DNA of 64,000 bases from Verrucomicrobiota bacterium (GCA_011391785.1 JAABPW010000228.1:9946-73945); one strand, 5' to 3'; counted from the stretch's first letter, positions 37,160-63,033 are shown. Notes: generated by a model from the letters alone, not told the origin. Program-made: numbers and translations.

Positions 37160-37206
37160 CGTGTCTCCCTTGTCGTTAAAGATATGAAGTGCCTTCCGGG
37201 GTGCGA

Positions 37207-37980
37207 TTAATGTTTCAGGCGTGCGGTAATGCGGGCTGCCGCATCGGTAGCCATGCGGCCGAAGTGTTTGAATTTCTCCTTCCGGATTCTCTCCAGCGGA
37301 CCTGTGATCACGATGGCGGCGACGAGCCGGTCGTCGTCGGCGAAGACCGGTGCGGCAACACAATGGGATCCCTCGATCTCCTCGGCCAGATCGAGGGTGT
37401 ATCCTTCCTTGCGTGCCAGCTCCAACTCCTTTTCCAGCTTGGCGGGGGTGGTGATGGTCCGGGCCGTGAACCGTTCGAAGGACTGCGCCGCGAGTTTGCG
37501 TTTCCGTTCCGCTTCGTCGCCAAAGGCGAGGAAAACCTTGCCGGGAGCGTTGCAGTACAAGGGGATTCGCACCCCGATATCATAGATGATGCGGATGGGC
37601 TGGCGTGATGGCTGGAAGTAGACCAGCACGGCCTCGTTGCCGCTGGGGATGAGGAGTCCGACGCTTTCCCCGCTCTCGTGGCGGAGCGCCTTGATTTCAG
37701 GGGTGGCCTCGTCCACGAGGTTCTTGCCGGCGGCATTCGGGACGGCGAGTTCCAGGAGCTTGGTGCCGAGGGAATAGGTTTTGGATTCTGTTTTATGCGT
37801 GTAACCGCGGGAGGATAGGTCCCCCAGGATCCGGAAGATCATGTTCTTGCTGATGCCGAGCAAACGGTGGATGTCGGTCAGGGTGAGCCCTGCGGGGTGC
37901 TGGCTGAGCAGCTCGAGTATGGCCAGGCATCGATCCGTACTGGGGGCAAGTGCTTTGTTGTTTATCGGAATACGCGTCAT
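37207..37980 (-). CDS. IclR-family transcriptional regulator
   Basis: 257 aa; N-terminal wHTH (LAILELLSQHPAGLTLTDIHRLLGISKNMIFRIL) and a C-terminal IclR effector domain; 47-bp gap to the downstream giant gene. Confidence 0.88.
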   Translation of the reverse strand: MTRIPINNKALAPSTDRCLAILELLSQHPAGLTLTDIHRLLGISKNMIFRILGDLSSRGYTHKTESKTYSLGTKLLELAVPNAAGKNLVDEATPEIKALRHESGESVGLLIPSGNEAVLVYFQPSRQPIRIIYDIGVRIPLYCNAPGKVFLAFGDEAERKRKLAAQSFERFTARTITTPAKLEKELELARKEGYTLDLAEEIEGSHCVAAPVFADDDRLVAAIVITGPLERIRKEKFKHFGRMATDAAARITARLKH

Positions 37981-38061
37981 CGGGGTCCCTCCTGTAATTC
38001 TTTATGTAGAATGTGTTCCTCCTGTAGAATAGTCAAGGGAGAGGAGGGGTGGAATTGAAAA

Positions 38062-38085
38062 TCCCCCCTTTCGGGTGGTGCTAAT
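38062..38085 (+). promoter_or_regulatory. conserved 24-nt upstream motif, copy A (TCCCCCCTTTCGGGTGGTGCTAAT)
   Basis: 23/24 nt identical to 48376-48399; lies in the IclR/propeller-A divergent intergenic region, ~28 nt upstream of the 38113 ATG. Confidence 0.6.
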
Positions 38086-38112
38086 CCCCGGAGGGATGAA
38101 CTAGAATGTGGC

Positions 38113-40584
38113 ATGTTTGAATCATGTCATGGAGCCGCAGCACTGTTGCTTGCGGTGATGCTGGTGGGGGGGGATGGCCTTGGGGCCGAGGACCGGTCTT
38201 CCGACGTGGATTCGCCCGGGGCGCGTGTGGCCTTGCGGAAGGCCATTGAGGATTTGTCGGAGACATTCCAGGACCGGTATCCGCGCGGGAAGGAATTCCT
38301 CGCCCGACTTGACAAGCTGAGCGATAAGAAGGCCTTTCTTGCGCTTCAGCGTGAGGCCCTGCTGGCTAATCCCCTGATCTCCGGCCAACCCCTCCTGTTT
38401 GTGGTGCGTCACCAGTACGCGGCGGATCACCACAACACCGAGACCATGTTTCAAACGGGTGAAATCAATACCAAAAAGTTCGAGGGGGGCGGCGCCCTGA
38501 AGTCGATTGATTTCGCCCGGGGCGGCGAGGTCAGGACCCTCGTCGATGCCGGTGACGCGGGCGTGGTGCGGGACCCGGATGTGTATTTCGACGGGAAGAA
38601 GATCCTCTTTTCGATGCGCCGGAACATCCGCGAGGATTATCACCTTTACGAGGTGCAGGCGGATGGGACGGGGCTCCGGCAGCTGACTTCCGCGGCCGGC
38701 GTGTTTGACATAGATCCGCTTTACTTGCCTGACGACAGTATTGTCTTCACGTCCTCCCGGGAACCCAAGTACTGCGGGTGCAACCGCCACATCATGGGCA
38801 ACCTTTTCCGGATGGATTCGGATGGCGCCAACATTCATCAGATCGGGAAGAGCACCTTGCACGAGGGGCATGGCAACCTGTTGCCCGATGGCCGTATCCT
38901 CTATGATCGCTGGGAGTATGTGGACCGTAACTTCGGGAGCGCCCAGGGACTCTGGACGGTCAATCCCGATGGAACCTATCACCAGATCTACTGGGGCAAC
39001 AATACGGCCAGTCCCGGCGCCGTGCTTGAGGGGCGGGTGATTCCCGGAACAGACAAGGTGCTCTGTACGTTTTCGTCCTGCCATGACCGGCCCTGGGGGG
39101 CGCTGGCGATCATTGACCGGCAGCGCGGGGTTGACGGGCGAGATCCTGTGGTGTGGACCTGGCCGGCGTACGCCATTAACCTGGTGGATGAGGACGGGAA
39201 CTACGATTCGTTCGGGAAAATCAAACTCAAGTACGAGGATCCTTATCCCCTCGGCGCGAAATATTTCCTATGTTCCCGGATGAGCGGAAAGGGAGCGGGC
39301 ATGGGGCTTTACCTGGTGGATTTGTTCGGCAATGAAATCCTGCTTCACGCGGAAGCGCCAGGCTGTTTCGACCCGATGCCGATAGTGGCCCGGACCCGTC
39401 CCCCGGTGATTCCCGTCCGGCGCGATTATACTGGGAATGAAGGAACATTTTTCATCCAGGACGTGTATCAGGGGACGCATTTGAAAGGGGTCAAGCGCGG
39501 GGACGTGAAGTTCCTGCGGGTGATTGAGGTTCCGGAAAAGCGGGGGTGGACCTATTCTGACTGGGCGGGGCAGGGGGCCATCGCCCCGGCGATGAACTGG
39601 TTCGATTTCAACAGCAAGCGCATCCTGGGGACGGTTCCGGTGGCGGAGGATGGCTCGGCGCATTTCGTGGTGCCGTCCGACACGTTCGTCTATTTCCAGC
39701 TGCTGGACAAGGACGGCCTGATGATCCAGTCCATGCGCAGTGGAACGATCATCCAGTCCGGGGAGCGCCAGGGTTGCGTCGGGTGCCACGAGAACCGGAT
39801 AACGGTTCCGATGACGTCGGCGCCCAAAAACCTCATCGCGTTGCAGCAGCCGCCGGCCCGGTTGACGGGGTGGCATGGCCCCGCGCGGTACTTCAACTAC
39901 CGGGCCGAAGTTCAGCCCGTTTTTGACCGGAACTGCGTGAGTTGCCACGATTTCGGAAAACCGGCGGGGAAGGTGCTGAATCTCGCAGGCGACCGGGGCA
40001 TGGTGTTTAACGCCTCGTATAGCAGCTTGTGGAACAACAACATGATGAAGGTGATTTCGGCCGGCCCCTCGGCAATCCAGGAAGCCTTGACCTGGGGTGC
40101 CCGCGTCAGCCCCCTGGTGAAGACGCTGAAACGGGGGCACAAGGACGTGAAGTTATCGGCCGAGGACATGGACCGGATTGTGACCTGGATTGATATCAAC
40201 GCTCCTTATTATCCCTCCTATTACTGTGCCCATCCCGCGAATGCGTTCGGGCGGTCTCCGCTCGACCCGGGTCAGCTTGATCAGCTCGAATCGCTGGGGA
40301 TTGACTTGCAGAAGAAGAAAAACATCAGCCGGGTGAGTTTTGACAGGCCTGAAAAGAGCCTTTGTCTGGAGGAGATGGGGGGCCCGGACGGGCACCGGTA
40401 CAAGGCGGTGCTGGCGATCCTCAAGGCCGGGCAGGCGGAATTGGCGGCGCACCCCGAGGCGGACGCAGCGGGATTCGTTCCGTGCGCCAAGGATCAGGAG
40501 CGGGAAGAAAAATATGAAGCCCGCCGCCAGACGGAATTGAGAAACCGGCGGAGTATTGCCACCGGCGCCAAGGCGCACGATTAG
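38113..40584 (+). CDS. secreted TolB-like beta-propeller protein with two CxxCH motifs (PSCyt1-like), paralog A
   Basis: 823 aa; close paralog of 52456-54792 (shared blocks REPKYCGCNRHIMGNLFRMDSDGANI, MRSGTIIQSGERQGCVGCHENR, NCVSCHDFGKPAGKVLNLAGD, IVTWIDINAPYYPSY). Confidence 0.8.
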   Translation: MFESCHGAAALLLAVMLVGGDGLGAEDRSSDVDSPGARVALRKAIEDLSETFQDRYPRGKEFLARLDKLSDKKAFLALQREALLANPLISGQPLLFVVRHQYAADHHNTETMFQTGEINTKKFEGGGALKSIDFARGGEVRTLVDAGDAGVVRDPDVYFDGKKILFSMRRNIREDYHLYEVQADGTGLRQLTSAAGVFDIDPLYLPDDSIVFTSSREPKYCGCNRHIMGNLFRMDSDGANIHQIGKSTLHEGHGNLLPDGRILYDRWEYVDRNFGSAQGLWTVNPDGTYHQIYWGNNTASPGAVLEGRVIPGTDKVLCTFSSCHDRPWGALAIIDRQRGVDGRDPVVWTWPAYAINLVDEDGNYDSFGKIKLKYEDPYPLGAKYFLCSRMSGKGAGMGLYLVDLFGNEILLHAEAPGCFDPMPIVARTRPPVIPVRRDYTGNEGTFFIQDVYQGTHLKGVKRGDVKFLRVIEVPEKRGWTYSDWAGQGAIAPAMNWFDFNSKRILGTVPVAEDGSAHFVVPSDTFVYFQLLDKDGLMIQSMRSGTIIQSGERQGCVGCHENRITVPMTSAPKNLIALQQPPARLTGWHGPARYFNYRAEVQPVFDRNCVSCHDFGKPAGKVLNLAGDRGMVFNASYSSLWNNNMMKVISAGPSAIQEALTWGARVSPLVKTLKRGHKDVKLSAEDMDRIVTWIDINAPYYPSYYCAHPANAFGRSPLDPGQLDQLESLGIDLQKKKNISRVSFDRPEKSLCLEEMGGPDGHRYKAVLAILKAGQAELAAHPEADAAGFVPCAKDQEREEKYEARRQTELRNRRSIATGAKAHD

Positions 40585-40772
40585 AATCCGTTGCACTTTT
40601 CCTTGAAATTGCCAGTCTCTTTAGTGCTTTAAACTTTGTATTGCAAAGTACTCTGCATTTTAATAGTGTTGATGGCGAAAGCAGCGGTAATGCCGGGCAG
40701 GGAGCCTGGACTGGGAGCGGCTGCTCGGGAAACCAGAAGGGGCGCGCAGCCCTGTTTGAAAAGGAGCCGGTC

Positions 40773-41528
40773 ATGAGCGAGATGGATGCAACCAATGGAA
40801 TTCCGGATGCGGGAGGCTATGGGGGGATGAGCGGGCAGGGCAGGACAACGCCCATGATCGCGTTTGAGGGGGACTATCATGCCATGAGGGGGATCGTGGG
40901 TGGGGCCGCGATTATCGAGGCGGTGCTCAAGCATCCGGCAGCGCTGGTCTACGAATTGACGAAGGGACGGGGCCGCTCCGTGGCGGTATGGCTGGTGTTG
41001 GTGGCCGGGCTGTGTCTGCTGGCCTATGGCGTGATCATGGGATCCTACAAGGGAGGCGTCATGTATCTCGTCGCCCCGGCCAAGATGGTCATGGGCGTGT
41101 TCCTTAGTTCGCTGCTGTGCCTGCCCAGCCTGTATATCTTCAGCAGCATGGGCGGGAGCCGGCAGACGCTTGGGGAAACGGCCGGACTTTTGCTGCTATG
41201 CCAGGCCCTTTCCGGACTGCTGCTGCTCGGCTTTGCCCCGATCGCCTGGGTGTTTTCACAATCCACCAGCGCGCTGGCGTTCATGGGGTTTCTCCATCTG
41301 GCGATGTGGCTGTTGGCTACGTTTTTTGCGGTTCGGTTGCTATCCCTCGCCCTGGAGTTCCTCAACAAGCGCAAGATGGGCGTCCTGAAGGTCTGGGCCG
41401 TGATCTTCGTTGTCGTGACGCTGCAGATGAGTGCCGTGCTGCGTCCCCTTATTGACAAGCCCGGGGCTACCCTGATTGAGCACGAGAAGATGTTTTTCAT
41501 GACCCATTGGGGCCGATGCATGGACTGA
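40773..41528 (+). CDS. hypothetical polytopic membrane protein
   Basis: ~251 aa from MSEMDATNG (RBS AAAAGGAG); 5-6 TM helices; paralogous to the next gene. Confidence 0.6.
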   Translation: MSEMDATNGIPDAGGYGGMSGQGRTTPMIAFEGDYHAMRGIVGGAAIIEAVLKHPAALVYELTKGRGRSVAVWLVLVAGLCLLAYGVIMGSYKGGVMYLVAPAKMVMGVFLSSLLCLPSLYIFSSMGGSRQTLGETAGLLLLCQALSGLLLLGFAPIAWVFSQSTSALAFMGFLHLAMWLLATFFAVRLLSLALEFLNKRKMGVLKVWAVIFVVVTLQMSAVLRPLIDKPGATLIEHEKMFFMTHWGRCMD

Positions 41529-41558
41529 TGAGGGTCGCAGCAAGGGAGGACCCCTGAT

Positions 41559-42296
41559 ATGGAAGAATCAAAACACCGTCCTGTAACACTGGCCGCCATG
41601 TGTCGCATGGATGCGGAGTTTGTCGGTTGCCTCGCGGAGGGCCGGAACACGCGGCCCATGCTCATCACGGCGCTGGGGGGGATCCTGATTGGAACCCTGG
41701 CCTACGGGGTGGTTTTCGGGTTATGGCGGGCACCCCTGCAGGCCGTGTTCTCCGGCTTCAAGCTGCCGCTGCTCTTTCTCCTGGTGGTGGCGGCAAGCGG
41801 CGTGATCAATGCCATGCTGGCGCAGGTCATGGGTGCCAGACTGGCCCTGAAGACGGTGGTTCTGCTGATGTTGGTGGGGATGGCGGTCACCGCCCTGCTG
41901 CTGGGTGCCCTGAGCCCGGTGGTGTGGTTCTTTGTGGCGCAAGCCCCGCCACCCGACCCCCTTGTGTTGGGGCTGGCCAAGGATAACGTGGCGGCGGCAA
42001 AATCAATGGGAGTGTATCGTGTCATCCTCGTCACCCATGTCGCGATCATCGGGGTGTGCGGGATTGTAGGGAATGCCCGGTTGTTCCGGATGATACGGGC
42101 CGTGACCGGGTCGGAGACCATGGCCTGGCGGCTTCTGCTCACCTGGATCATGGTTTCGGGTTTTGTGGGGTGTGAATTGTCCTGGCTCCTGAGTCCCTAC
42201 TTGTGCAATCCCCTTACTCCGCCGCACATTGTGAACCGGCAGTATTTTGAGAGTAATTTCTATGAGTATGTCTATCACGCATTACAGGGAAGGTAG
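41559..42296 (+). CDS. hypothetical polytopic membrane protein (tandem paralog of 40773-41528)
   Basis: 245 aa; RBS AGGGAGG; similar TM topology. Confidence 0.6.
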   Translation: MEESKHRPVTLAAMCRMDAEFVGCLAEGRNTRPMLITALGGILIGTLAYGVVFGLWRAPLQAVFSGFKLPLLFLLVVAASGVINAMLAQVMGARLALKTVVLLMLVGMAVTALLLGALSPVVWFFVAQAPPPDPLVLGLAKDNVAAAKSMGVYRVILVTHVAIIGVCGIVGNARLFRMIRAVTGSETMAWRLLLTWIMVSGFVGCELSWLLSPYLCNPLTPPHIVNRQYFESNFYEYVYHALQGR

Positions 42297-42353
42297 GGGG
42301 ATGAAAGTCAGTAGTCAGAAGTTAGGAGACAGGAGTCAGGCTTTGCGATTTCT

Positions 42354-43997
42354 TTGTATCCTGACGGCGGGGATGCGGGTATTTTGGGAGCAAGAGCACG
42401 AAAACCGCAGAGGGGCATTGTCTTGGATATAGTCATCAGTAATTTGCGAATCGCCGTTGAACGGGACGGGCTGGAGGAATATGGCCAGGTCGCATCAGCC
42501 AGGCTGAATCTCGGTGTGTCCGATCTCAACGTTGTCAAAATTCTCGGCAAATCACTGGATGCCAAGGATGAGGAGCAGTTTTTCTTCCTCGTATCCATTG
42601 TCGCAAGGGTGCCGGATTCTTTCGCCAACGAGGAGGGGTTTCCCCTTCATGCGGAGGAGGCCAAGCCGGGAAGGACCGCCATCGTTTCCGCGGAGCGGCC
42701 TGTGATCATCGGCTTCGGTCCTGCTGGGATGTTTGCCGCGCTTGAACTTCTCGACTATGGAGTTAAACCCCTGATCTTTGAGCGGGGCAAAAGAATCGAA
42801 GAGCGTGATCTCGATATCCGGGGATTTATCCGCGACAGGACGCTCGATCCCGAGTCCAATATCCAGTTTGGTGAAGGCGGGGCCGGTTCCTATTCGGATG
42901 GAAAACTGTTCTCGCGAATCAATAATTCGCCTCATGCCAACAAGGTGCTGGATACCCTCATCCGGTTTGGCGCGCCCGGGGAAATCGGTTACCTCCGCAA
43001 GCCCCATCTGGGGACCGACGTTCTGCGCGGGATTGTCCGCAATATCAGGAATCATATCCTCTCCCGTGGCGGCGAGATCCATTATTCCTCGCGGTTGACG
43101 GATGTGCTTGTGTCCGGCGGCCTGGTGACTGGGGTCGTGATCAACGGCGCGGCCGAGTATCCTGCGCCAACCCTTTTTCTCGCCGTGGGGCATTCGGCCC
43201 GCGATACCTTCCGGATGCTCCATGATAAGGGCGTGGCGCTCGAGCAAAAGCCTATTTCCGTCGGCGTGCGGATCGAGCATCCGGCGGAGGTCATCAACCT
43301 GGTGAGATATGGCAGGAAATATCAGGCTTTTCCCGGGCTTGGGGCCGCCACCTATTCCTTCAACCATACCAATCGAAAGACGGGAAGGGGGGTCGCCACC
43401 TTCTGCATGTGCCCCGGCGGCGAGATTGTGAATGCCTCGTCTGAAAACGGCTTGTTGGTCCTGAATGGCATGAGTTACGCCGCCAGGTCCTCGGCTTTCT
43501 CGAATTCAGCGCTGGTGGTGAGCTGCCGCACGGCGGATTATCCCTCGGCGCATCCACTGGCCGGACTCGATTTCCAGGCGGAAATTGAGCGGAAAGCGTT
43601 TGAGACGGCCGGGGAGGGATGGACCGTTCCCGCGCAGAATCTGATGGATTTTATCGGCGGGCGGGTCTCTGCCGGAATCAAGGTCAACTCGTACAAGATG
43701 GGCTCCACCGCCGTTGACCTCAACGTGGTTTTGCCGGGATTTGTTTGCGAGGAACTCTCGACCGCCTTTGCCCGATGGAAGGAGGAGGCGCCCTTGTTCG
43801 TTTCGGAGCAGGCCGTCCTGTTGTCGCCGGAAACACGGACTTCTTCGCCCGTGCGAATTCGGCGCAACGAAAATTACGGGTCCGTCTCGCTGGAAAATCT
43901 GGTCCCGATCGGCGAAGGGGCGGGCTATGCCGGCGGAATCACCAGTTCGGCGATTGATGCCATCAAGGCGGTGGAGCGCCGCATGGCCGGGTCATAG
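42354..43997 (+). CDS. FAD-dependent oxidoreductase (COG2509-like uncharacterised FAD-dependent dehydrogenase)
   Basis: 547-aa ORF; dinucleotide-binding VIIGFGPAGMFAALEL; start uncertain (ATG 42354 or in-frame TTG 42423 preceded by AGAGGGG). Confidence 0.75.
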   Translation: MYPDGGDAGILGARARKPQRGIVLDIVISNLRIAVERDGLEEYGQVASARLNLGVSDLNVVKILGKSLDAKDEEQFFFLVSIVARVPDSFANEEGFPLHAEEAKPGRTAIVSAERPVIIGFGPAGMFAALELLDYGVKPLIFERGKRIEERDLDIRGFIRDRTLDPESNIQFGEGGAGSYSDGKLFSRINNSPHANKVLDTLIRFGAPGEIGYLRKPHLGTDVLRGIVRNIRNHILSRGGEIHYSSRLTDVLVSGGLVTGVVINGAAEYPAPTLFLAVGHSARDTFRMLHDKGVALEQKPISVGVRIEHPAEVINLVRYGRKYQAFPGLGAATYSFNHTNRKTGRGVATFCMCPGGEIVNASSENGLLVLNGMSYAARSSAFSNSALVVSCRTADYPSAHPLAGLDFQAEIERKAFETAGEGWTVPAQNLMDFIGGRVSAGIKVNSYKMGSTAVDLNVVLPGFVCEELSTAFARWKEEAPLFVSEQAVLLSPETRTSSPVRIRRNENYGSVSLENLVPIGEGAGYAGGITSSAIDAIKAVERRMAGS

Positions 43998-44030
43998 GCT
44001 CAAGGTGGACGCCGACCGCCTCTTCCCGAT

Positions 44031-44303
44031 TTATCCGCGGTTGACTGGATTTACCGGATGATGCCGGACCCCGTCGGGTGATGAATACGGACTTTCCACC
44101 GGCAGGAACTCTGTTCCCGAGGGCTTGATGCTTGCAAGCTTCGCGGCAAGCTTTTCAAGTAGTTGAATGCGTTCCTTAAGCGCGTCCTTGTATGCGAAGG
44201 CCCGTGTGTGGTGCAATTCGACTTCGCTGCCCCGACATTCCTTCTTGACCAGGAAATCCAATTCCTGCAGTTCCGCATCCGTCAATTCAAGTGTCCGGTT
44301 CAT
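44031..44303 (-). CDS. small coiled-coil hypothetical protein
   Basis: ~90 aa from MNRTLELTDAELQELDF; RBS AAAGGAG 7 nt upstream; in the lower-GC island. Confidence 0.55.
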   Translation of the reverse strand: MNRTLELTDAELQELDFLVKKECRGSEVELHHTRAFAYKDALKERIQLLEKLAAKLASIKPSGTEFLPVESPYSSPDGVRHHPVNPVNRG

Positions 44304-44335
44304 ACTCGCTCCTTTCGTTTTATCCACCGCCACCA

Positions 44336-47300
44336 CTATGGCATAATCCCTACATTGATTTTGTAGTAGCCGCAGGGGGAGAGAGTGGCATTGGTGAAAC
44401 CACTTTTTGTCCAGGGAATATTGCTTTCTAGGCATTGAAACCCGCTTAGCAGATTGGTCGTCCAGTAAACCGAATAGACCCGTCCGGAAACGGCATTCCA
44501 GTCGAGTATATTGTTCGTGCCAGGCCGGTATCCTGTAATGCCAAACCCGGCCTCTTCGTCGTTTGGATCGAATCCGGCTAGATAGGCTTCGAGCACGGTG
44601 TTAATGCCGTTGGAGCAAACAGCATGCGGATTTCCATTTGTAATATTGCCGCAATGCTCCTGTTCCCAGGTATCAGGAATTCCATCACCATCGGCATCCC
44701 ACGGAATGATGGTGAGATGAAAGGTTTGCTGGATAGGCTGGTTCTCGGGTCCTGGCGGGCCCGGTAGACTGGCCATGACCAAAATATCCCATGTACCGGC
44801 AGTGGTCGGGATGCCCTCCAATTTGCCGTTTAAGGCGGATACCCCGGGCGGAAGGGTTGCCATCGGGTTGATGCTGATCTGAGAGGAAAGCGACGTCGCA
44901 AACATCCAAAGGAAACTGACCCCCACACGGGCGGAGGCCGAGCTGGCAGTGGTGAAAACAAGATTCGTAGCTCCTCCCCCGGACACCTCGATACGTGCGG
45001 GATCACTGGAGACAGTGCCACCCGGATTCCTGATCACAACACGAAACCAGCAGGTCGCGGAGAGTGCTGGCGTTGTTACGGTGTTGGATGTAGCGCCCTC
45101 AATGTCCGTATAAAGGCCGCCAAAGTCCGATGCCATCGACCACTGATAGGTCAGCAAATCGCTGGTGGCGGTAACGGAAAGTTGCGCCGTAGATCCCGCC
45201 GTAATTGGAGCGATGCTGCTGGCGGGCTGAACCGTGATCGTGGGGGCAGGATGAGCCGCATAGTAGGCGCTTTGGAGGGGGGCGAGCTCGTCGTTTCTAA
45301 GCCCTGTAACGACACTGTAACTGCCATCGTCCGCCAGAAAAGCCTCATCGGACAAATCCCAGAGTTGATCCATCACCGCGTTGAAACGGGCAATGAAGTC
45401 AGCCTCCGCCATGGAAAACCAGGACGGGACCTCCTCTATGATAACGGCCTTCATGGCCGTGATGCGATGGGGAAGATAATTGGTGGGGGCGTCAAGCCCG
45501 GGATCAGGCAGGTCCCTCATATTCGGCAAGCCGTTCCAATGAAGAATTTGATCCTGAGTCTCTCCTCCCACCGTGGGTTCCCCAGTCAAGCCGGTAAGGC
45601 GCACCGCCTCGCTCGTGTTGAGGAGCGCGTGATAGCGTGCAAGCTGGTTCGACACCGCTGAGGCATCGATCGGGTGCGCCTCTGAAGAATAGGTGGCCGC
45701 ATTGGTCCAGTCATCATAAACAAGCAAACGATGGAGGGAGCCACCCCCTTCGTAGGCTTGAACACGCGCAAAGGCCGCTTGATAGCCGTGCCACGCAGAG
45801 TCGTAAGCGTCTTTGAATGCCGGATTGGCCGTGACTAGAGCCTCATATTTCGACTGCAGGGCGCGAGCCGCAGTAAGTCCTGCGCTCCCCGGCGTGGCGA
45901 GAGCGGCGAGCAGCGAGGTTTTGTAAGTCGCCATCGAAAAGGCGTGCCCAACGACCAGCGTAAAGTCCTCCGGCGTTTGGGAGAAGTAACCGAGGCGCCC
46001 GATTGGCGGGTTCTGGGGTATGTTGAGAATAGGCTCCAACGGTCCGAGTACGAGGCCTGACGATGAAGCCAATGCGTTTTCCCACGCAAGGCCCTGTGCG
46101 ATCAAAACGGCTAAGGCGCCTTCTGCGGCGGAAAGATTTCCGTCGAGGTCAGCGGAAACGGAAGCGATTCCGCCGCTCCAGGTCACCACGGCGTCGGCCA
46201 GTTTATCCGCCAGCGTTTGCGCATTAACGAGTGACACGGGAAGCTGAGTCAAATACTGACCAAGACTAACCGCCAAATCCTCTGCCGGAGCTTGCCCCAT
46301 GCCGGGAATGTTGCTCCAGCCGGAGGAATAATAATTCTCAGGTGTGTCGCTATAGCCGCTCTCCTCGAGCAACGTCTTGAGCGAACGAGTCTGGTTCTGC
46401 AGGTTGAAAAGGGTGTTGTAGAGATCCGTGAGCGCCTCAACGTGAACAATTAACCCCGGCAATGCCGGGCCGGTAGGGGTCACATCGGTGACCCATTGTT
46501 GAATGGCGGCGCATGAGCTGATCGAGTCGTTATATGAAGCCGTCGTGTTGGCATCGAGGGTGTCTCCGTAAAAGGTGGAGATAAAGCCGGCGATCCGGGG
46601 CGTGGTGAGATAGACGGATACGCCGGTATCGATGGATGTTTGCCGCGCTTCGATCTGGGCCTGGCAGTTGGTGATTGCGGTGATCGGCGCCTCGGCGTTC
46701 CAGCGCGCAATCGCGGCATTGCGCACACGGGTTTGGTAGTCCGGAATGGGCTCGTTCTCTTCCTGCGGCGGGATTGGCTGATGAACCGGTGGCGAAACGG
46801 CGGACTGATTGGCGGCGAGTCTGGCCGCACCCTCTTCAAGCAGCTGCTGGGCCTTCAAGTCATCCAGCGCCGCAATGAGCGTAGCGAGCTCCTCTTCAAG
46901 GTGGCTCACCTCAGCTTGCGCCAGGGGGAGATCGAGGTCAGCATCGGTCTTGGCGGTGGCCGCTTCCGTGCTGAGGGCGTCCAGGGTCCCCAGGGCGGTG
47001 GCGATCGCGGTACGTACCATGCCGTTCTTGTAATAAATGACGCCAGGGCCTGTGGGGAGGATCACCTTGCCCGTTTGCTTCAGACAGGCACTGGCCACCG
47101 CATAGCCGTCCAACGCCAGTGTTTCCTGAACCAGGCCAAGGTTGGGGAAAGTGGCGCGTGCCGCATCAGAGACCGCCTTGATTTTTACATTGCGCGGACT
47201 ACAGAGCGTTTCGTCGTCAAGCCCCATCGCTTTTTTACGAGCATTATCGGCTCCGCTCTGAAGCGTTTCCAGCGCTACTTTACCCACGGCATTCCGGAGC

Positions 47301-47725
47301 CCGTGGGTAATCAGCGCATTGGCGGCAGTCTTGCCGATATTGATTTTATCAGCGACCTCGTTACAGGTCACGATGCCCAGTTGAATCGTGGTTTTGATGA
47401 GATTTTTGTTGTTGATATCCGCCAGCGTAACATCCGCGCTCCTGAGTTGCTGGCGAGCAGCGGTGATATCACTGGTTTTGGTGTCGAAATTGTCCAGAAA
47501 TTCGCTTAATATCGCAAGTTGGCGCTGTGCGGCGAGCAATTCAGCTTGCTTCGAATTGATCTCGCTCATCTTGGCCGTAATGGCACCTTCGTAGTCACCA
47601 GCGTTCGCCCCTGATTGTCCCTTGATCAGCGCCGAACCCTCGACATTAACGATTGCATTCACATCCTGAGCAATGCAGGCTGCGGTCATAGCCAGAATAA
47701 CTGCAGCTATAAAACTTCTCTTCAT
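44336..47725 (-). CDS. giant secreted hypothetical protein (N-terminal coiled coil, Ig-like region, thrombospondin-type Ca-binding DADGDGIPD motif)
   Basis: ~1130 aa from MKRSFIAAVILAMTAACIAQD; lower GC (~50%) than its surroundings; no catalytic motifs recognised. Confidence 0.7.
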   Translation of the reverse strand: MKRSFIAAVILAMTAACIAQDVNAIVNVEGSALIKGQSGANAGDYEGAITAKMSEINSKQAELLAAQRQLAILSEFLDNFDTKTSDITAARQQLRSADVTLADINNKNLIKTTIQLGIVTCNEVADKINIGKTAANALITHGLRNAVGKVALETLQSGADNARKKAMGLDDETLCSPRNVKIKAVSDAARATFPNLGLVQETLALDGYAVASACLKQTGKVILPTGPGVIYYKNGMVRTAIATALGTLDALSTEAATAKTDADLDLPLAQAEVSHLEEELATLIAALDDLKAQQLLEEGAARLAANQSAVSPPVHQPIPPQEENEPIPDYQTRVRNAAIARWNAEAPITAITNCQAQIEARQTSIDTGVSVYLTTPRIAGFISTFYGDTLDANTTASYNDSISSCAAIQQWVTDVTPTGPALPGLIVHVEALTDLYNTLFNLQNQTRSLKTLLEESGYSDTPENYYSSGWSNIPGMGQAPAEDLAVSLGQYLTQLPVSLVNAQTLADKLADAVVTWSGGIASVSADLDGNLSAAEGALAVLIAQGLAWENALASSSGLVLGPLEPILNIPQNPPIGRLGYFSQTPEDFTLVVGHAFSMATYKTSLLAALATPGSAGLTAARALQSKYEALVTANPAFKDAYDSAWHGYQAAFARVQAYEGGGSLHRLLVYDDWTNAATYSSEAHPIDASAVSNQLARYHALLNTSEAVRLTGLTGEPTVGGETQDQILHWNGLPNMRDLPDPGLDAPTNYLPHRITAMKAVIIEEVPSWFSMAEADFIARFNAVMDQLWDLSDEAFLADDGSYSVVTGLRNDELAPLQSAYYAAHPAPTITVQPASSIAPITAGSTAQLSVTATSDLLTYQWSMASDFGGLYTDIEGATSNTVTTPALSATCWFRVVIRNPGGTVSSDPARIEVSGGGATNLVFTTASSASARVGVSFLWMFATSLSSQISINPMATLPPGVSALNGKLEGIPTTAGTWDILVMASLPGPPGPENQPIQQTFHLTIIPWDADGDGIPDTWEQEHCGNITNGNPHAVCSNGINTVLEAYLAGFDPNDEEAGFGITGYRPGTNNILDWNAVSGRVYSVYWTTNLLSGFQCLESNIPWTKSGFTNATLSPCGYYKINVGIMP

Positions 47726-47790
47726 TTCTGTCCTCCTGACGTCATGGCTCACTGGCGACGAGCCTGACAGTGCGGCCACTTGTTTGCAGC

Positions 47791-48033
47791 TCAGTTCTTC
47801 ATGATGTCAATGATTGAAAGTCCTCGTGATCCTGCCACAATGAGCATGACGCCAAAGACAATCGGCATAATTGTGTACGAAACAAAATGCATCGCGAATC
47901 CAGTTTTCCCGCCCCAAAACCTTTTCATCGCATCCAGCTTTCCGAACTTACTAGGGTCTTTTTTCCTCATATATCCCGTGTAGACCCCATAACCTGCGGC
48001 GACAACACCCAGTCCCATCGTCACTAGATCCAT
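47791..48033 (-). CDS. small two-TM membrane protein
   Basis: 80 aa; immediately upstream of, and co-oriented with, the giant secreted protein. Confidence 0.5.
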   Translation of the reverse strand: MDLVTMGLGVVAAGYGVYTGYMRKKDPSKFGKLDAMKRFWGGKTGFAMHFVSYTIMPIVFGVMLIVAGSRGLSIIDIMKN

Positions 48034-48076
48034 TTCATGCTCCCTTTAGGTTTTGCAAACACAACAGTCGTCTTTT

Positions 48077-48259
48077 TCAGCGGCGAACCTGTGTGCGGGA
48101 CGGAATAAGGGGTGGTTCGGCGTGTCTTTTGAATTCATAACCATGCCATGCCGGGGATGGTACATCCTCCTGTGAATGACAAAGGCTGTCCCAAACTTCC
48201 TCCAGAACGCGAAGTTTCTCGGCTACATCCATTTTGTCGAGCGGTATCGCCACATGCAT
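48077..48259 (-). CDS. putative addiction-module antitoxin-like small protein (TIGR02574-like), orphan
   Basis: ~60 aa from MHVAIPLDKMDVAEKLRVLEEVWDSL; no partner toxin ORF nearby. Confidence 0.35.
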   Translation of the reverse strand: MHVAIPLDKMDVAEKLRVLEEVWDSLCHSQEDVPSPAWHGYEFKRHAEPPLIPSRTQVRR

Positions 48260-48375
48260 GATTGTCTTCTTCAGCTGGCGAAAGAATATCCCAATCATCA
48301 TCCTTCTGCAACATTCAACCCTTCCCTCAAATTGGCAGATGATGATTACGATAAACCCAGTGTTCGACACTGGGC

Positions 48376-48399
48376 GGTCGTAATTTCCCCCCTTTCGGG
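48376..48399 (+). promoter_or_regulatory. conserved 24-nt upstream motif, copy B (TCCCCCCTTTCGGGTGGTGATAAT) with extended -10-like TGATAATAT
   Basis: 23/24 nt identical to 38062-38085; ~80 nt upstream of the AKR gene that heads the propeller/FGE/CCP gene string. Confidence 0.6.
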
Positions 48400-48480
48400 T
48401 GGTGATAATATCTGGCTGGATTCACTATAGTTCGGTTCACAAAAGGTTCCCGATATGGGGCCGTGGGGAGATACCGGACT

Positions 48481-49485
48481 ATGCGTACTAGGAAACTCGG
48501 GAATTCAGGGATTGAAGCTTCTGTTGTCGGGCTTGGCGCCTGGGTGCTGGGCGGGGGGGCGGTGTGGGGGGCTGATACGGATGACAACGAGTCCATCGCC
48601 ACGATCAAATCGGCCCTGGATGCGGGCATCACTCTCATTGACACGGCACCCGCCTACGGGTTCGGGCGCAGCGAGGAGGTTGTGGGCAAGGCGATCCGCG
48701 GCCGGCGCGGCCAGGTTGTCCTGGCCACCAAGTGCGGGCTGTGGTGGGATGACCAGCGCGGATCCTACTTCTGTGAGTTCGACGGGCGCCCGATCCAACG
48801 ATCCCTGCGTCCCGACACGATTGTCATCGAACTCGAAAACAGCCTGCGGCGACTGGGAACCGATTACATCGACCTTTACCAGAGCCACTGGCCAGCGGTG
48901 GCGCCCGACAAGACTCCGATTGCCGACACCATGGCGTGCCTGATGAAGCTGAAGGAGCAGGGGAAGATCCGCGCCATCGGGGTCTCCAATGTGTCCATCC
49001 CGGAGCTGGGTGAGAATCTCGCCAGCGGGGATGTGGCCTCGAACCAGTTCCGCTACAGCATGCTGCACCGGGCCCCGGAGCAGGATATGCTCCCGGCCTG
49101 CCGCCAGAACAATTTGGCCACGCTGACCTACATGAGCCTCGAGCAGGGACTGCTGACCGGCAAGGTAGGCATGGACCGGTCCTTCTCGTCCGGCGATTTC
49201 CGCAGTAACGAAGCCTGGAATCCCTGGTACAAGATCGAGAACCGCCAGCGCGTGCTGGATTTTCTGGCCGGGTTCAAGCCCTTGACTGAAAAGTACGCCT
49301 GCACCACCGCCCAGCTGGTTATCGCCTGGACCCTGGCTCAGCCCGGCGTGACCCACACTCTGGCCGGCGCCCGCCGCGAGGCGCAGGCCCGGGAGAATGC
49401 CCGCGGCGGCGATATCCTGATCGAAATCGATGATTTGAAGGCCATGTGCAAGGCCGTGGAGGTGCTCGGTGAACCGATACGCTAA
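48481..49485 (+). CDS. aldo/keto reductase
   Basis: ~334 aa from MRTRKLGNSGIEAS; AKR TIM-barrel motifs (GITLIDTAPAYG, IDLYQSHWP). Confidence 0.88.
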   Translation: MRTRKLGNSGIEASVVGLGAWVLGGGAVWGADTDDNESIATIKSALDAGITLIDTAPAYGFGRSEEVVGKAIRGRRGQVVLATKCGLWWDDQRGSYFCEFDGRPIQRSLRPDTIVIELENSLRRLGTDYIDLYQSHWPAVAPDKTPIADTMACLMKLKEQGKIRAIGVSNVSIPELGENLASGDVASNQFRYSMLHRAPEQDMLPACRQNNLATLTYMSLEQGLLTGKVGMDRSFSSGDFRSNEAWNPWYKIENRQRVLDFLAGFKPLTEKYACTTAQLVIAWTLAQPGVTHTLAGARREAQARENARGGDILIEIDDLKAMCKAVEVLGEPIR

Positions 49486-52399
49486 GCGATATGCGACGAT
49501 GATCATCGGCGGGGCGTTGTGGCTGGCAGGGCAGACCGCCCCGGCCTTTGAGACAAACGCCCTGGCTCGCGCCATTGAGGACCTGTCGGCCTCGTTCCCG
49601 GCGCACTACACGCAGGGAGCTGATTTCCTGAAGCAATTGGCGGCGGTCCGCACCGAGGCTGAGTTCGCGGCCCTGGAGCGGAAGGCCCTGTTGGCCAATC
49701 CGCTTCTCGATTTCGACCAGGTGCTGGTGGTCAGGCGCGGCGCCGATAAGCTCGCCCTTCCCCAGAATTGGCAGGGAAACTGCGCCCTTCCTCCCAAAGG
49801 CTATCGCAACGACATCGCTGTCCTCTCCCTCTCCAACGGGGTTGCCAGGGCGCTCTTCACGCCGACCAACGGGGTGTTCGTCGGGGATGTGGATCTGGAT
49901 TTCGATGCCGACAAGCTCCTGTTCTCGATGCCTGATGACGCTGGCAACTGGCATGTCTGGGAACTGGTCGCGAACGGGGCCGGCCTTAAAAAGGTCACTC
50001 CCGATGAGCCGATGATTGACCAGTACGACGCCTGTTACCTGCCGGATGGCGGGATTATTTTCAACTCCACCGCCGCCGTTGCCGGGGTGCCCTGTGTCGG
50101 GGGCGGGACGGTTGTGGCCAACCTTTTCCGCATGTCGGCCGACCGGAGCACGATCCGGCGCCTATGCTTCGACCAGGAGCACAATTGGTGCCCCACGGTG
50201 TTGAATGACGGGCGTATCCTGTACACCCGCTGGGAATATACCGACACGCCGCATTACTTCACCCGCCTGCTGTTCTCGATGAATCCGGACGGAACGACCC
50301 AATCGGCCTACTATGGTAGCAATTCCTATTGGCCCAATTCCATCTTCTATGCGCGGCCCATTCCCGGTGTAGCGGGCAAGGTGGTTGGGATTGTCTCCGG
50401 TCACCACGGCGTGACGCGGATGGGGGATCTCATCCTGTTTGATCCGGGCTTCGGCCGCAACGAGTCCGCCGGGGTCGTCCAGCGTATTCCCGGGTTCGGG
50501 AAAAAGGTTGAACCGGTAATCAAGGATCAGCTGGTGGATGATGTCTGGCCGAAGTTCCTGCATCCCTATCCGCTGAGCGCGAAATATTTCCTGGTTTCCT
50601 GCAAGCCCGGACCCCATGAAAAGTGGGGGATATACCTGGTGGACGTTTTCGACAATAGGGTGCGGCTCTACGACGAGCCGGGCATGGCCATCCTGGAGCC
50701 CATCCCGTTCCGGAAGACCGTCAGGCCCCCGGTGATTCCCGACCGTGTCAATCTGGATGAAAAGGAAGCCACGGTCTATCTCAACGATGTCTATACGGGC
50801 CCCGGCCTCGCGGGTGTGCCTCGCGGGACAGTGACAAAACTTCGCGTCTACACCTATCATTTCGCCTACCCGGGAATGGGGGGGCATATCAACGTGGGGA
50901 TCGATGGCCCCTGGGATGTGCGCCGTTTACTGGGAACCGTGCCGGTCAATGCCGATGGCTCAGCATCGTTCAAGGTGCCTGCCAACATGCCCCTGGCCCT
51001 GCAGCCGCTGGACAAGGACGGGCAGGCCCTCCAGATCATGCGGAGCTGGTTCACCGCCATGCCCGGTGAGAGCGTGACCTGCGCGGGGTGTCATGAGAAG
51101 CAGAATACCACCCCGCCATCGCGACCGAACAAGGCGGTTCTGCAGAAACCGGTAACGATCACCCCGTGGTACGGTCCTTTCCGCGGTTTCAGCTTCACCC
51201 GCGAGGTGCAGCCGGTCCTGGACCGGAACTGCACCGGGTGTCATTCCCAATTCGCCGCGAACCAGCCCAAGATCGGCGGCTTTACCCGTTCCTATTTCGC
51301 CCTGCATCCCTTTGTGCGGCGGCCTGGCCCCGAGAGCGATTACCATATGCCGAAGCCCTACGAGTATCATGCAAGCACCAGTGAGCTGGTCCAGATGCTG
51401 CGCCAGGGGCATCATGGTGTCCGGCTCGACAAGGAGGACTGGGACCGCCTCACGACCTGGATCGACCTCAACGTCCCCGATCATGGCACATGGGGCGAGC
51501 ACCACTCCATCCCGGCAAACATGGAGACGTTGCGCCGGGACATGCTGAAGAAGTATGCGCAGATGGACGATAACCCGGAGGTGATCCCGGAGACGCCTGC
51601 CAGAAGCACTAAATTTGTCCCGCCCGCCGCGACGTCTCAGGAAAAACCGGCCGTCAAGGACTGGTCCGTTGATGCCCGCTGGGGCCAGGGACTGGCCCCT
51701 GAAATGAAATTCGATCTCGGGGAGGGGAAGGTTATGGAGCTGGTCCTGATCCCGGCGAAGAAGCCCTTCTATATGGGGCGTTTCGAGGTCGTGAATGCGC
51801 AGTACCGGCTGTTCGATCCGGATCATGACAGCGGTTATGTCCAGATCTTCAACAAGGACCGAACGGCCCGGGGGGTTCCGGTTAATGGGGCGGCCCAGCC
51901 TGTCGTGCGGGTCACCTGGCAGGAAGCCTCGGCTTTCTGTGCCTGGCTGTCGAAGAAAACGGGGAACAAATTCAAGCTGCCCGACGAAGATCAATGGGAA
52001 TGGGCCTGCCGCGCCGGAAAGGCGACCCCGATGTGGTACGGGGAGACCAACGCGGATTTTGCAACGTTCGCCAATCTGGCGGATACCAACCTGGCAGAAT
52101 TAACCCCCGGGAATTCCCCGAAATGGATTCCGGCGATCCGGACGGTCGATGACGGGGTGGCGGCAACGGCCGGGGTGGGGCGCTATCTGCCGAATCCGTG
52201 GGGACTTTACGACATGCACGGGAATGCCGCGGAATGGACCTCGTCCGTGACCCGCGAGGGGGAGCGGATCTGTCGGGGCGGCTCCTTCTATGACCGTCCG
52301 AAACGGGCCACCGCCAGTTCGTACCGCGGCTATCTTCCTTTCCAGCCGGTTTTTGATGTCGGGTTCAGGGTAATCATGGAACTTCCCGATCGTAAATGA
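49469..52399 (+). CDS. secreted TolB-like beta-propeller / CxxCH (PSCyt1-like) protein fused to a C-terminal FGE-sulfatase (formylglycine-generating enzyme family) domain, paralog C
   Basis: 976 aa; GTG start with GGAGG RBS, overlapping the AKR stop; propeller blocks paralogous to A/B; TCAGCHEKQ and NCTGCHSQ; C-terminal ~270 aa is FGE-like (RVTWQEASAFCAWL...WEWACRAG...MHGNAAEWTSS...RGGSF). Confidence 0.8.
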   Translation: MNRYAKRYATMIIGGALWLAGQTAPAFETNALARAIEDLSASFPAHYTQGADFLKQLAAVRTEAEFAALERKALLANPLLDFDQVLVVRRGADKLALPQNWQGNCALPPKGYRNDIAVLSLSNGVARALFTPTNGVFVGDVDLDFDADKLLFSMPDDAGNWHVWELVANGAGLKKVTPDEPMIDQYDACYLPDGGIIFNSTAAVAGVPCVGGGTVVANLFRMSADRSTIRRLCFDQEHNWCPTVLNDGRILYTRWEYTDTPHYFTRLLFSMNPDGTTQSAYYGSNSYWPNSIFYARPIPGVAGKVVGIVSGHHGVTRMGDLILFDPGFGRNESAGVVQRIPGFGKKVEPVIKDQLVDDVWPKFLHPYPLSAKYFLVSCKPGPHEKWGIYLVDVFDNRVRLYDEPGMAILEPIPFRKTVRPPVIPDRVNLDEKEATVYLNDVYTGPGLAGVPRGTVTKLRVYTYHFAYPGMGGHINVGIDGPWDVRRLLGTVPVNADGSASFKVPANMPLALQPLDKDGQALQIMRSWFTAMPGESVTCAGCHEKQNTTPPSRPNKAVLQKPVTITPWYGPFRGFSFTREVQPVLDRNCTGCHSQFAANQPKIGGFTRSYFALHPFVRRPGPESDYHMPKPYEYHASTSELVQMLRQGHHGVRLDKEDWDRLTTWIDLNVPDHGTWGEHHSIPANMETLRRDMLKKYAQMDDNPEVIPETPARSTKFVPPAATSQEKPAVKDWSVDARWGQGLAPEMKFDLGEGKVMELVLIPAKKPFYMGRFEVVNAQYRLFDPDHDSGYVQIFNKDRTARGVPVNGAAQPVVRVTWQEASAFCAWLSKKTGNKFKLPDEDQWEWACRAGKATPMWYGETNADFATFANLADTNLAELTPGNSPKWIPAIRTVDDGVAATAGVGRYLPNPWGLYDMHGNAAEWTSSVTREGERICRGGSFYDRPKRATASSYRGYLPFQPVFDVGFRVIMELPDRK

Positions 52400-52455
52400 T
52401 ACTCTCAACCCCGTTGCCCTGGGAGGGGGGCTGTCTGCATCGAGAAGGGGGAGGC

Positions 52456-54792: not shown

Positions 54793-54910
54793 GCCACGGC
54801 GCCCTATTGAATAACCACCCGAAAGTGGGGGTTCCAATATTCTTATTTCGGGTTACCTTTAAGCAAATGACCGAGATGGGGTGTCTACTATGGAGAAGGG
54901 GATAATTTTA

Positions 54911-56770: not shown

Positions 56771-56790
56771 TGGGGGGAGGGGGAACCACA

Positions 56791-57873
56791 ATGAAACTGC
56801 CGGAAAAAGATGTGGCGCGTTTTGTACGCCCGATCGGGCACTGCGGCGTAACGGAAGCCTGTCTCGGTGTGCAGCGTCTTGGCGACGACCCGATGTCGGT
56901 TTTCCAGGGGTTCCCTCAGGAACCCGGGGAAGTAGCGGCCCAACTGGTTTTTGGAGGGTGTCAATTCCAGGAAGCCGGCCAGGCGCTCATGGGCGGGGCC
57001 AAGTGGCCGATGATGTGGCTTCAGGGTGATCCGTGCGATGGGAAGCACGTGGCCGGGCTCCAAGCCCTGCTGCTCAAGGGTGCGTCCATCAGGCGGCTCC
57101 AGTTGGACGGTGCGGTGGTCGGATCGGCCTGGTCTGACGAGGATGCCGACTATTGCCTGCTGGCCGGGATTATGCCTTCCGATTTGTCTGCCTCCCGTAG
57201 CGATCAGGCGCGGCAGGTCTTTGAGCGGATCGAGACGGTCCTCAGGCAGGCGGACATGGGTTTTGACGACGTGATCCGAACCTGGCTGTATCTGGATCAC
57301 CTGCTCGACTGGTATGGGGATTTCAATGTCGTCCGCACCCGGTTTTTCGAGGAACGTGGCGTGATGGGGAAGCGGGTTCCTGCGAGCACCGGAATCGGAG
57401 CCCGCAATCCGCTCGGTTCGGCGATTGTGGCGGGTGCCCTGGCGATCCGCCCGAAACACAAGGGTGTCAAGATCACGCTGGTATCCTCGCCGCTCCAGTG
57501 TTCCGCCCTGGAGTACAAGAGTACCTTCAGTCGCGCGGTTGAATTGGAGTTTCCCGGGCGGCGCCAGCTGCTCATCTCCGGCACGGCGAGCATTGCCCCG
57601 GGGGGCGAATCGGTGCACCGGGGTGATACGGCGGCCCAGATCGAACTGACCATGAAGGTGGTTGCCGCCATCCTGGAGTCACGGGGCATGACGTGGAAGG
57701 ACACGACGCGCGCCATCGGTTATTTCCAGGACATGAAGGATGCCCCGCTGCTGGCGGAGTATTGCCGGGCAAACGGGATCAAGGACTTCCCGGTGGTCAA
57801 CGCCCACGCCACCGTCTGCCGCGATGATCTTCTCTTCGAGATCGAACTGGACGCCGCCGTTACCTGCTGCTAA
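56791..57873 (+). CDS. tandem RidA/YjgF-like (Rid family) protein
   Basis: ~360 aa from MKLPEKDV (G-rich RBS); two YjgF-like repeats (IRTWLYLDHLLDWYGDFNVVRTRFF, AIGYFQDMKDAPLLAEYC...VVNAHATVCRDDLLFEIELDA); assignment by motif resemblance only. Confidence 0.5.
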   Translation: MKLPEKDVARFVRPIGHCGVTEACLGVQRLGDDPMSVFQGFPQEPGEVAAQLVFGGCQFQEAGQALMGGAKWPMMWLQGDPCDGKHVAGLQALLLKGASIRRLQLDGAVVGSAWSDEDADYCLLAGIMPSDLSASRSDQARQVFERIETVLRQADMGFDDVIRTWLYLDHLLDWYGDFNVVRTRFFEERGVMGKRVPASTGIGARNPLGSAIVAGALAIRPKHKGVKITLVSSPLQCSALEYKSTFSRAVELEFPGRRQLLISGTASIAPGGESVHRGDTAAQIELTMKVVAAILESRGMTWKDTTRAIGYFQDMKDAPLLAEYCRANGIKDFPVVNAHATVCRDDLLFEIELDAAVTCC

Positions 57874-57962
57874 TCCGGCTACTAAATAGTGGCGATTCCC
57901 GCACGACGAGCAAGATTCACCACCCGCTTCGCTAGAGGCGCGGAGACGCAGAGAAGAAAATG

Positions 57963-58009
57963 TTGCGGGAATTATGCCCGCGGAAATACCGTGGGCATAA
58001 TTCCCGCAA
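57963..58009. repeat. 17-bp perfect inverted repeat with 13-nt spacer (TTGCGGGAATTATGCCC ... GGGCATAATTCCCGCAA)
   Basis: read directly; lies at the GC-content boundary downstream of the RidA-like gene; no T-run follows. Confidence 0.7.
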
Positions 58010-58054
58010 CCCCTCTGGTGGAGAATTCCCAAGAGGAAAAGGATCCTAACGTCC

Positions 58055-58821: not shown

Positions 58822-58837
58822 CCGTTCCTTACCTGGT

Positions 58838-63026: not shown

Positions 63027-63033
63027 CATATTC

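Follow-up and report, generated by a model that had tools for sequence, protein, structure and literature searches.

Regulators of the IclR family bind palindromes or pseudopalindromes as dimers or tetramers, and their operators include the Escherichia coli IclR box (TGGAAATNATTTCCA) and those of KdgR, PcaR/PobR, and BhcR. Among class II activator promoters, CRP and FNR boxes are centered at -41.5 and the lux box of LuxR at -42.5. Promoters of the sigma-70 family have spacers of 16–19 bp. Turning from sites to genes, co-localized non-anammox homologues of hydrazine synthase (HZS) subunits, both alpha and beta-gamma, whose function is not known, are described in PMC12758564. Here we analyze 64,000 nucleotides (nt) of DNA from a Verrucomicrobiota bacterium (GCA_011391785.1, JAABPW010000228.1:9946-73945; this whole stretch is “the window” below), in which a 24-nt motif is repeated upstream of distant homologues of both kinds of subunit and of an aldo-keto reductase (AKR) gene. 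The conserved entity is an 18-bp dyad with the consensus ACCACCC-N4-GGGTGGT, and the 24-mer is probably the core of a ~46-bp promoter-operator module (the dyad plus a sigma-70-type -10) that would serve a dimeric transcription factor and one small regulon. Sequences, their conservation and geometry, and the gene content were read directly from the DNA, and from them we predict where transcription starts, that a protein binds, and in which direction regulation works.

The repeated motif and its copies

The original prediction was that the motif stands ahead of two separate transcription units and nowhere else in the window. The 24-mer, TCCCCCCTTTCGGGTGGTG(C/A)TAAT, does lie at 38062-38085 (copy A), as had been stated; copy B lies at 48386-48409, and the coordinates first given for it (48376-48399) were 10 nt too low. 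The two copies are identical at 23 of 24 positions. Because 100 dinucleotide-preserving shuffles of the window yielded zero matches to the motif, even with up to 3 mismatches, the repeat is far beyond chance. Aligned in register and without gaps, A and B are similar over 42 nt (81% identity), and the same register reaches a -10-like hexamer in each, TAGAAT and TATAGT, respectively (Table 1). There is no significant similarity between them 5′ of the motif or past ~50 nt.

Uniqueness holds for the exact 24-mer, but a third copy, inverted and degenerate, occurs at 54814-54831 (copy C; ACCACCCgaaaGTGGGGG on the plus strand, CCCCCACTTTCGGGTGGTT on the minus strand). Read on the minus strand, it has 2 mismatches to the 16-nt core of the motif. 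It is placed within the 88-nt gap between the open reading frames 52396-54792 and 54881-56770.

Conservation at related loci

The relatives used for comparison are metagenomic contigs coding for orthologues of the flanking proteins, and it is because this comparison keeps the 18-bp dyad that we take it, rather than the 24-mer, as the conserved entity. In contig L046 (IclR 82% identical), the divergent IclR/propeller arrangement is kept and TTGAAAATCCCCCCTTTCGGGTGGTGATAAT is intact, with the 14 nt upstream and the 16-nt downstream spacer diverged; promoter A and its L046 counterpart (A′) share 31 identical nt with diverged patches on either side. In contigs L047/48/49 (AKR 88% identical), AKR is followed by HZS+FGE, then beta-gamma-like, then FkbO-like, and TCAACCCTTTCGGGTGGTTATAAT stands as far from the AKR start as the motif does in the window (promoter B′), although the upstream DNA is unalignable; B and L047 agree at 21 of 24 positions. 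Thus, at both pairs of orthologous promoters (A with L046, B with L047), the dyad is conserved as its flanks diverge. The arrangement in L051 (AKR 81% identical) differs, as the AKR and three HZS-alpha genes are divergent from the beta-gamma-like gene. The intergenic region that they share has two sites 60 bp apart, one per divergent promoter: ACTACCCgttcGGGTGGT and the perfect palindrome ACCACCCaaatGGGTGGT. The beta-gamma-like gene therefore has its own dyad promoter in L051, as it does in the window, where the 88-nt gap holding copy C follows an extra paralogue; in L047, the same gene instead overlaps the preceding one.

The dyad was not found at the more distant or rearranged AKR orthologues L050, L052, and L054. 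The region upstream of the AKR/HZS genes in L050 (9512-10000) is interrupted by an IS200-like insertion and filled with short tandem repeats, five copies of CACCCTTAACCTGA, beside an IS200-like Y1 transposase, and the dyad is gone. The corresponding region of L052 (6821-7196) is a long GGAAGG(C/A)-type tandem array, again with the dyad gone.

Could the similarity of A and B be no more than the relic of a promoter fragment that was duplicated, or of paralogous clusters that underwent gene conversion, and involve no shared regulator? A and B are closer to each other (23/24) than B is to its orthologue B′ (21/24), they have the tttc spacer in common, and the HZS alpha-like genes are recent paralogues. 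However, the genes immediately after A and B are not paralogous (HZS alpha-like and AKR, respectively), the similarity ends at the motif on the upstream side and ~50 nt downstream, both copies were retained in other lineages as the flanks diverged, and the perfect palindrome of L051 has a different spacer. As a full account, this is very unlikely in our judgment, yet the pattern of identity between A and B suggests some common descent or concerted evolution.

A constant distance to a -10-like hexamer

The window and nine related loci were scanned on both strands for a composite pattern consisting of the dyad (up to 4 mismatches), exactly 22 nt, and TAnnnT. There were exactly seven hits, and all seven are intergenic and directed at an adjoining HZS-like or AKR gene; composite-pattern hits in shuffles of the window came to 0.74. 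Every one of the seven promoters has T1, A2, and T6 of a sigma-70-type -10 at the constant position and on the strand of the downstream gene, even as the 16-nt stretches in the dyad-to--10 interval vary in sequence from promoter to promoter. The prediction of a shared cis-element, and of one probable regulon, is supported by this constant distance together with the retention of the site at the relatives' orthologous promoters despite diverged flanks, and a third promoter in the window (54814-54859) can be added to the two proposed at the outset.

The symmetry of the sites is variable. Counting matches per arm, L051 has one perfect site (7+7) and one of 6+7 (site 1), and the copies in the window have 5+7, 5+7, and 7+4, the degenerate arm being C-rich. 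The perfect arm is the distal one in C and in L051 site 1 and the proximal one in the other five, with the 22-bp offset kept in all. Such orientation independence is what one would anticipate at a symmetric binding site for a protein, and not at a sigma element, which is directional. This bears on the idea that an alternative sigma factor itself recognizes GGGTGGT as an upstream promoter element and that no further transcription factor takes part, which the fixed distance to a -10-like hexamer and the lack of a TTGACA-like -35 would otherwise suit. In addition to occurring in both orientations, however, the dyad is separated from the -10 by 22 bp, which exceeds the spacers of the sigma-70 family, and no sigma factor gene was found in the window. 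We give this idea very little weight, marginally less than the duplication relic.

Assuming a transcription start ~7 nt after the hexamer, the dyad would be centered at approximately -43.5, with the proximal arm covering -41 to -35. The -35 region itself is poor: at a 17-bp spacer, the hexamers (TGCTAA, TGATAA, TTATAA, TAGTAT, TTACCT, GTTCCA) match TTGACA at only 2–3 of 6 positions. A TGn extension precedes the -10 hexamer in none of the seven promoters, and a scan for consensus promoters returned none at A and, at B, only GTGATA-18-TATAGT (9/12).

A competing choice of -10 needs to be considered, namely the G(C/A)TAAT block at the end of the 24-mer. The original prediction had copy B running into an extended -10-like sequence, TGATAATAT, and this sequence is indeed found there (48403-48411), although the comparative register sets the -10 16 nt farther downstream. 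If the block were the true -10, the dyad would fall in the spacer, as in MerR-like promoters with a 19-bp spacer or at a site for a repressor between -35 and -10. In favor of this, A, A′, B, and B′ conserve the block in -10-like versions (GCTAAT, GATAAT, and TATAAT), and A and A′ have a TTGAAA exactly 19 bp upstream of it. Nevertheless, the block is missing from copy C (TTCCAA) and from L051 site 1 (TACCTT), and reads AGTATC at L051 site 2, whereas the downstream TAnnnT is present at seven of seven. Given these absences, the block is neither shared by all copies of the module nor a common -10. At the 19-bp distance, B and B′ offer nothing that resembles a -35 hexamer (CGTAAT, TGGAGT). The TGAAAA that precedes A is kept upstream of IclR orthologues lacking the dyad as well, and hence is to be assigned to the iclR half of the intergenic region. 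Judged as a MerR-type arrangement (a dyad in a 19–20-bp spacer), only A and A′ fit (TTGAAA-19-GMTAAT); B, B′, C, and both L051 sites are without the -35, the -10, or both. The block is thus an improbable -10, and with it the extended -10 of the earlier proposal.

With the downstream TAnnnT as the predicted -10, the distance from hexamer to start codon is 27–57 nt everywhere but at promoter A (~51 nt at C, to ATG 54911). As the predicted -10 of A ends only 5 nt before ATG 38113, the mRNA of unit A may be leaderless or nearly so. This start codon is backed by a signal-peptide sequence that is conserved in L046. Unit A has no Shine-Dalgarno sequence at a usable distance from ATG 38113. Its L046 orthologue has 34 nt from the -10 to the ATG, following a ~26-nt indel.

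Hairpins and dispersed repeats

A GC-rich palindrome between genes might act through RNA or DNA folding, as an intrinsic terminator, an mRNA-stabilizing stem-loop, or a dispersed palindrome of the repetitive extragenic palindromic (REP) or miniature inverted-repeat transposable element (MITE) type. CCCCCC and GGGTGG are able to pair, and copy C lies 21 nt past a stop codon, with a T-rich run behind it. The predicted hairpins, however, are weak and no better than those of shuffled sequences (z from -1.0 to -1.8, and 0.0 for L047), changes in the arms are one-sided with no compensatory changes, and at A and B there is no preceding gene on which a terminator could act. The 64 kb, moreover, contain just three copies, and the promoters at which they lie are of a single kind. 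Rfam 15 covariance models found no match in 37000-57000 on either strand with an E-value up to 1. We regard this as the least credible of the alternatives considered.

A motif scattered over many unrelated intragenic sites was the outcome that had been named as fatal to a regulatory role, and there is no sign of a dispersed repeat in the window, in the related loci, or in scans of large collections (the complete source genome is not among them). Specifically, ~170 kb of related loci contain no further copies beyond the seven promoter sites. The exact 18-nt core was also scanned for in 185,579 species genomes and in Joint Genome Institute (JGI) metagenomes (the source organism is in neither collection), giving 23 and 15 hits, which is chance level; all are in unrelated taxa and none has the NTAAT extension. 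Among these hits are the 23S-5S spacer of Streptomyces, an element that recurs in Oscillospiraceae, and isolated single cases.

The same 18-mer, CCCCCCTTTCGGGTGGTG, lies inside a conserved, recurrent element of gut Oscillospiraceae/Clostridia contigs (L002, L010, L017 with two copies, L021, L025, and L038), which reads ...CCCCCCTTTCGGGTGGTGT(A/G)GCCAACCGCCTGCCGTT... and bears no relation to the window. It has no Rfam match at gathering thresholds in L010, L017, or L025.

We also considered whether B and C could be the inverted repeats of an invertible segment, or the terminal repeats of an insertion sequence, around 6.4 kb. The window has no recombinase or transposase, and both copies are explained as promoters; the candidate was rejected.

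The adjacent IclR-family regulator

The protein first suggested as the possible binder is the IclR-family regulator encoded next to promoter A, in which case the dyad would be its operator and both loci would be under its control. In the window and L046 alike, the gene points away from promoter A, and in every orthologous contig it is followed by, or co-transcribed with, an HZS_alpha+HEAT gene, which ties it functionally to the protein family. Its orthologues tell otherwise. The recognition helix SKNMxFRIL is invariant (S44 K45 N46 M47 F49 R50 I51 L52) in five IclR orthologues with 68–100% identity, those of 68–75% included, yet the dyad was not found in 16–21 kb around each of the orthologues in L040, L042, and L044. 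Conversely, there is no IclR gene near the dyad promoters of L047 and L051 (within 10 kb upstream of both, 6.6 kb downstream in L047, and 10 kb downstream in L051). What the promoters of the five orthologues have in common is a different block (TTGACn, TTCTAyArGrAGAAC in the spacer, TAyTCT, and TCTAC-nn-GTAGAA), and the partner that is conserved with IclR is not the divergent unit A but the HZS_alpha+HEAT gene downstream. Within the window, this type of box is confined to the segment upstream of iclR itself (Table 1), with no copy elsewhere, promoters B and C included.

On this evidence, binding of the dyad by the adjacent IclR is unlikely, as orthologues with the identical helix have no dyad and conserve another box. 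The AT-rich TTCTAyArGrAGAAC block is likely the autoregulatory operator of this IclR orthogroup, which has the ~1300-aa HZS_alpha+HEAT protein as its partner. A 9-mer, TAGAATGTG, is common to the iclR box and the -10 of A; it is not conserved in L046, and we took it as chance.

Features and gene context

Table 1. Features of the window and hexamers of the seven promoters. Coordinates are counted from the first base of the window; -10 hexamers are predicted.
Feature	Coordinates	Strand	Description
Dyad A	38062..38079	+	TCCCCCC-tttc-GGGTGGT; proximal arm perfect, distal arm 5/7 against ACCACCC; identical 18 bp in orthologous intergenic region of L046
Dyad B	48386..48403	+	TCCCCCC-tttc-GGGTGGT; orthologous L047/48/49 site is TCAACCC-tttc-GGGTGGT
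Dyad C	54814..54831	+	ACCACCC-gaaa-GTGGGGG; distal arm perfect, proximal arm degenerate
GCTAAT block (predicted -35 region of A)	38080..38085	+	GATAAT in B and L046, TATAAT in L047, AGTATC in L051 site 2
-10 of promoter A (unit A)	38102..38107	+	TAGAAT; TAnnnT register; ends 5 nt before ATG 38113
-10 of promoter B (AKR operon)	48426..48431	+	TATAGT; 49 nt 5′ of ATG 48481; TATATT in L047 at same position and same 49 nt
-10 of promoter C (beta-gamma-like gene)	54854..54859	+	TACCTT; same 22-bp dyad offset as other six promoters
-10 of promoter A′ (L046)			TATGAT
-10 of promoter B′ (L047)			TATATT
-10 of L051 site 2			TACTTT; toward AKR
-10 of L051 site 1			TATTTT; other strand, toward beta-gamma-like gene
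Conserved iclR promoter/operator-like block	37997..38036	-	TTGACT 38036-38031, TTCTACAGGAGGAAC 38029-38015, CATTCT 38013-38008, TTCTACATAAAGAA 38011-37998; shared upstream of five IclR orthologues
IclR-family regulator gene	37207..37980	-	Pfam match; divergent from unit A, co-directional with HZS_alpha+HEAT gene 33317-37159
Unit A	38113..43997	+	HZS alpha-like heme protein 38113-40584, membrane proteins 40641-41528 and 41559-42296, FAD-dependent protein 42354-43997 (Pfam/NCBIfam)
Unit B	48481..54792	+	AKR 48481-49485, HZS alpha-like + FGE-sulfatase fusion 49469-52399, extra HZS alpha-like paralogue 52396-54792
Unit C	54911..57873	+	HZS beta-gamma-fusion-like protein (7-bladed propeller + di-heme), FkbO/RidA-like protein 56767-57873

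The first protein of unit A (823 aa) has the middle domain of hydrazine synthase alpha and two CxxCH motifs, and the gene order of the unit is repeated in L024. Two of its proteins have no Pfam match and were considered as hidden regulators; they were ruled out because their hydrophobic sequences are those of polytopic membrane proteins. As for unit B, the order AKR then HZS+FGE is kept in L047. The extra paralogue at the end of the unit, which is 72–77% identical to 38113-40584 at the DNA level, is missing there. For unit C, ATG 54911 is the likely start, as the N-terminus then aligns with those of the L047 and L051 orthologues. The protein has two CxxCH motifs and matches NCBIfam hydrazine_BC (hydrazine synthase beta-gamma fusion) with E = 1.2e-46; the score is far below the family cut-off, for which reason we call it a distant homologue.

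Altogether, four paralogous HZS_alpha-domain proteins are encoded in 21 kb (33317-37159, 38113-40584, 49469-52399, and 52396-54792). Their fusions differ (HEAT repeats in one, an FGE-sulfatase domain in another), which amounts to a local expansion of an orphan family. Among the three paralogues examined for CxxCH heme motifs (33317-37159, 38113-40584, and 49469-52399), two have two each and the HEAT fusion has one.

Some further observations concern the surroundings of the units. Between a gene for a 1147-aa protein and promoter B there is a toxin-antitoxin-like pair (47791-48262, minus strand), of which the 61-aa product matches Pfam Unstab_antitox and the 80-aa partner has no Pfam match; L047 has a Peptidase_MA_2 gene at the equivalent place and no such pair. 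Directly after the FkbO/RidA-like gene lies an inverted repeat of 22 nt, almost perfect and with a loop of 5 nt (57962-58010), which is probably the terminator of unit C. A ~97-nt repeat (85% identity) with an adjoining 24-mer (96%) occurs at 58837-58984 and 63031-63147. It takes in the start, together with the DNA upstream, of two genes on the minus strand (58234-58821 and 62025-63047, the latter a DUF1963 gene), which constitute a second gene pair with a common upstream region. The remainder of the window is ordinary chromosome (purL, IMPDH, EF-G, dnaG, and others), and the best named relatives of its EF-G are from Kiritimatiellia (~75% identity), which places the organism among the uncultured bacteria of the PVC superphylum.

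Proposed regulation and its weak points

We propose that a dimeric helix-turn-helix factor would bind the dyad and control the recruitment of RNA polymerase at promoters A, B, and C; as units A, B, and C all carry the module, they would form one small regulon. The weak -35 hexamers, the lack of a TGn extension, and the overlap of the site with the -35 lead us to favor the role of a class-II-type activator, with a repressor that occludes the -35 region as the alternative. Tentatively, and with somewhat less than even confidence, we suggest that a dedicated activator switches on the alpha-like, beta-gamma-like, AKR, and FGE-domain genes together.

Several points weigh against a shared operator-promoter module, and they should be kept in mind. 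The -10 hexamers were assigned by register alone. Two of the seven promoters are orthologous counterparts of others, which leaves ~4–5 independent observations. In this genome, the arms of the dyad are asymmetric (5/7 + 7/7), and the site is missing from the more distant AKR orthologues in L052 and L054 (72–77% identity). A and B also share the tttc spacer, which would not be contacted, and the flanking TAAT; therefore, part of their 23/24 identity may reflect common descent or gene conversion. No candidate regulator consistently adjoins the dyad promoters. Finally, membership of the regulon was counted within the 64-kb window only.

Relation to known systems

Interest in the module stems mainly from the orphan hydrazine-synthase-like genes that it ties together. 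A common operator implies that the alpha-like, beta-gamma-like, and AKR genes are probably expressed as one functional unit in this lineage. The 46-bp module would also be a concrete bait for the regulator and, through the regulator, for the inducing substrate. If the proposal is correct, a dedicated activator and its ligand would be the first experimental handle on the role of these widespread heme/propeller complexes. In addition, explicit proposals of promoter architecture are few for uncultured Kiritimatiellia-like bacteria, and this is one of them, with a TAnnnT -10, a weak -35, and, at 38113, a start that may be leaderless.

A literature search for the dyad sequence returned nothing relevant. 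The regulatory site is previously undescribed and lineage-restricted, yet it is an ordinary bacterial operator-promoter in kind. It resembles class II promoters in having a dyad of ~18–22 bp over a weak -35, fixed phasing with the -10, and one site per promoter, hence two for a divergent pair (as in L051). It differs from them in its predicted center (approximately -43.5), and its sequence matches none of the CRP, FNR, or lux boxes. With the IclR-family operators it has in common a palindromic site and an IclR gene divergent to promoter A; however, the dyad is GC-rich, whereas the box of the window's own IclR orthogroup is AT-rich, and the dyad is missing beside orthologues with the identical helix. 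Like REP palindromes and bacterial interspersed mosaic elements (BIMEs), it is a short, GC-rich, imperfect, intergenic palindrome. It differs from them in that there are three copies, each 22 bp before the -10 of functionally related operons, with orthologous positions kept and a hairpin that is unstable.

With regard to the genes, the closest parallel is the one described in the accessible part of PMC12758564. There, as here, HZS alpha-like di-heme genes lie beside a propeller and di-heme beta-gamma-like fusion in a bacterium of the PVC superphylum, with distant NCBIfam/Pfam matches. That part of the paper describes genes without a cis-regulatory element, whereas in the window the alpha-like genes are multiplied and linked to an AKR, and one of them includes a fused FGE-sulfatase domain.

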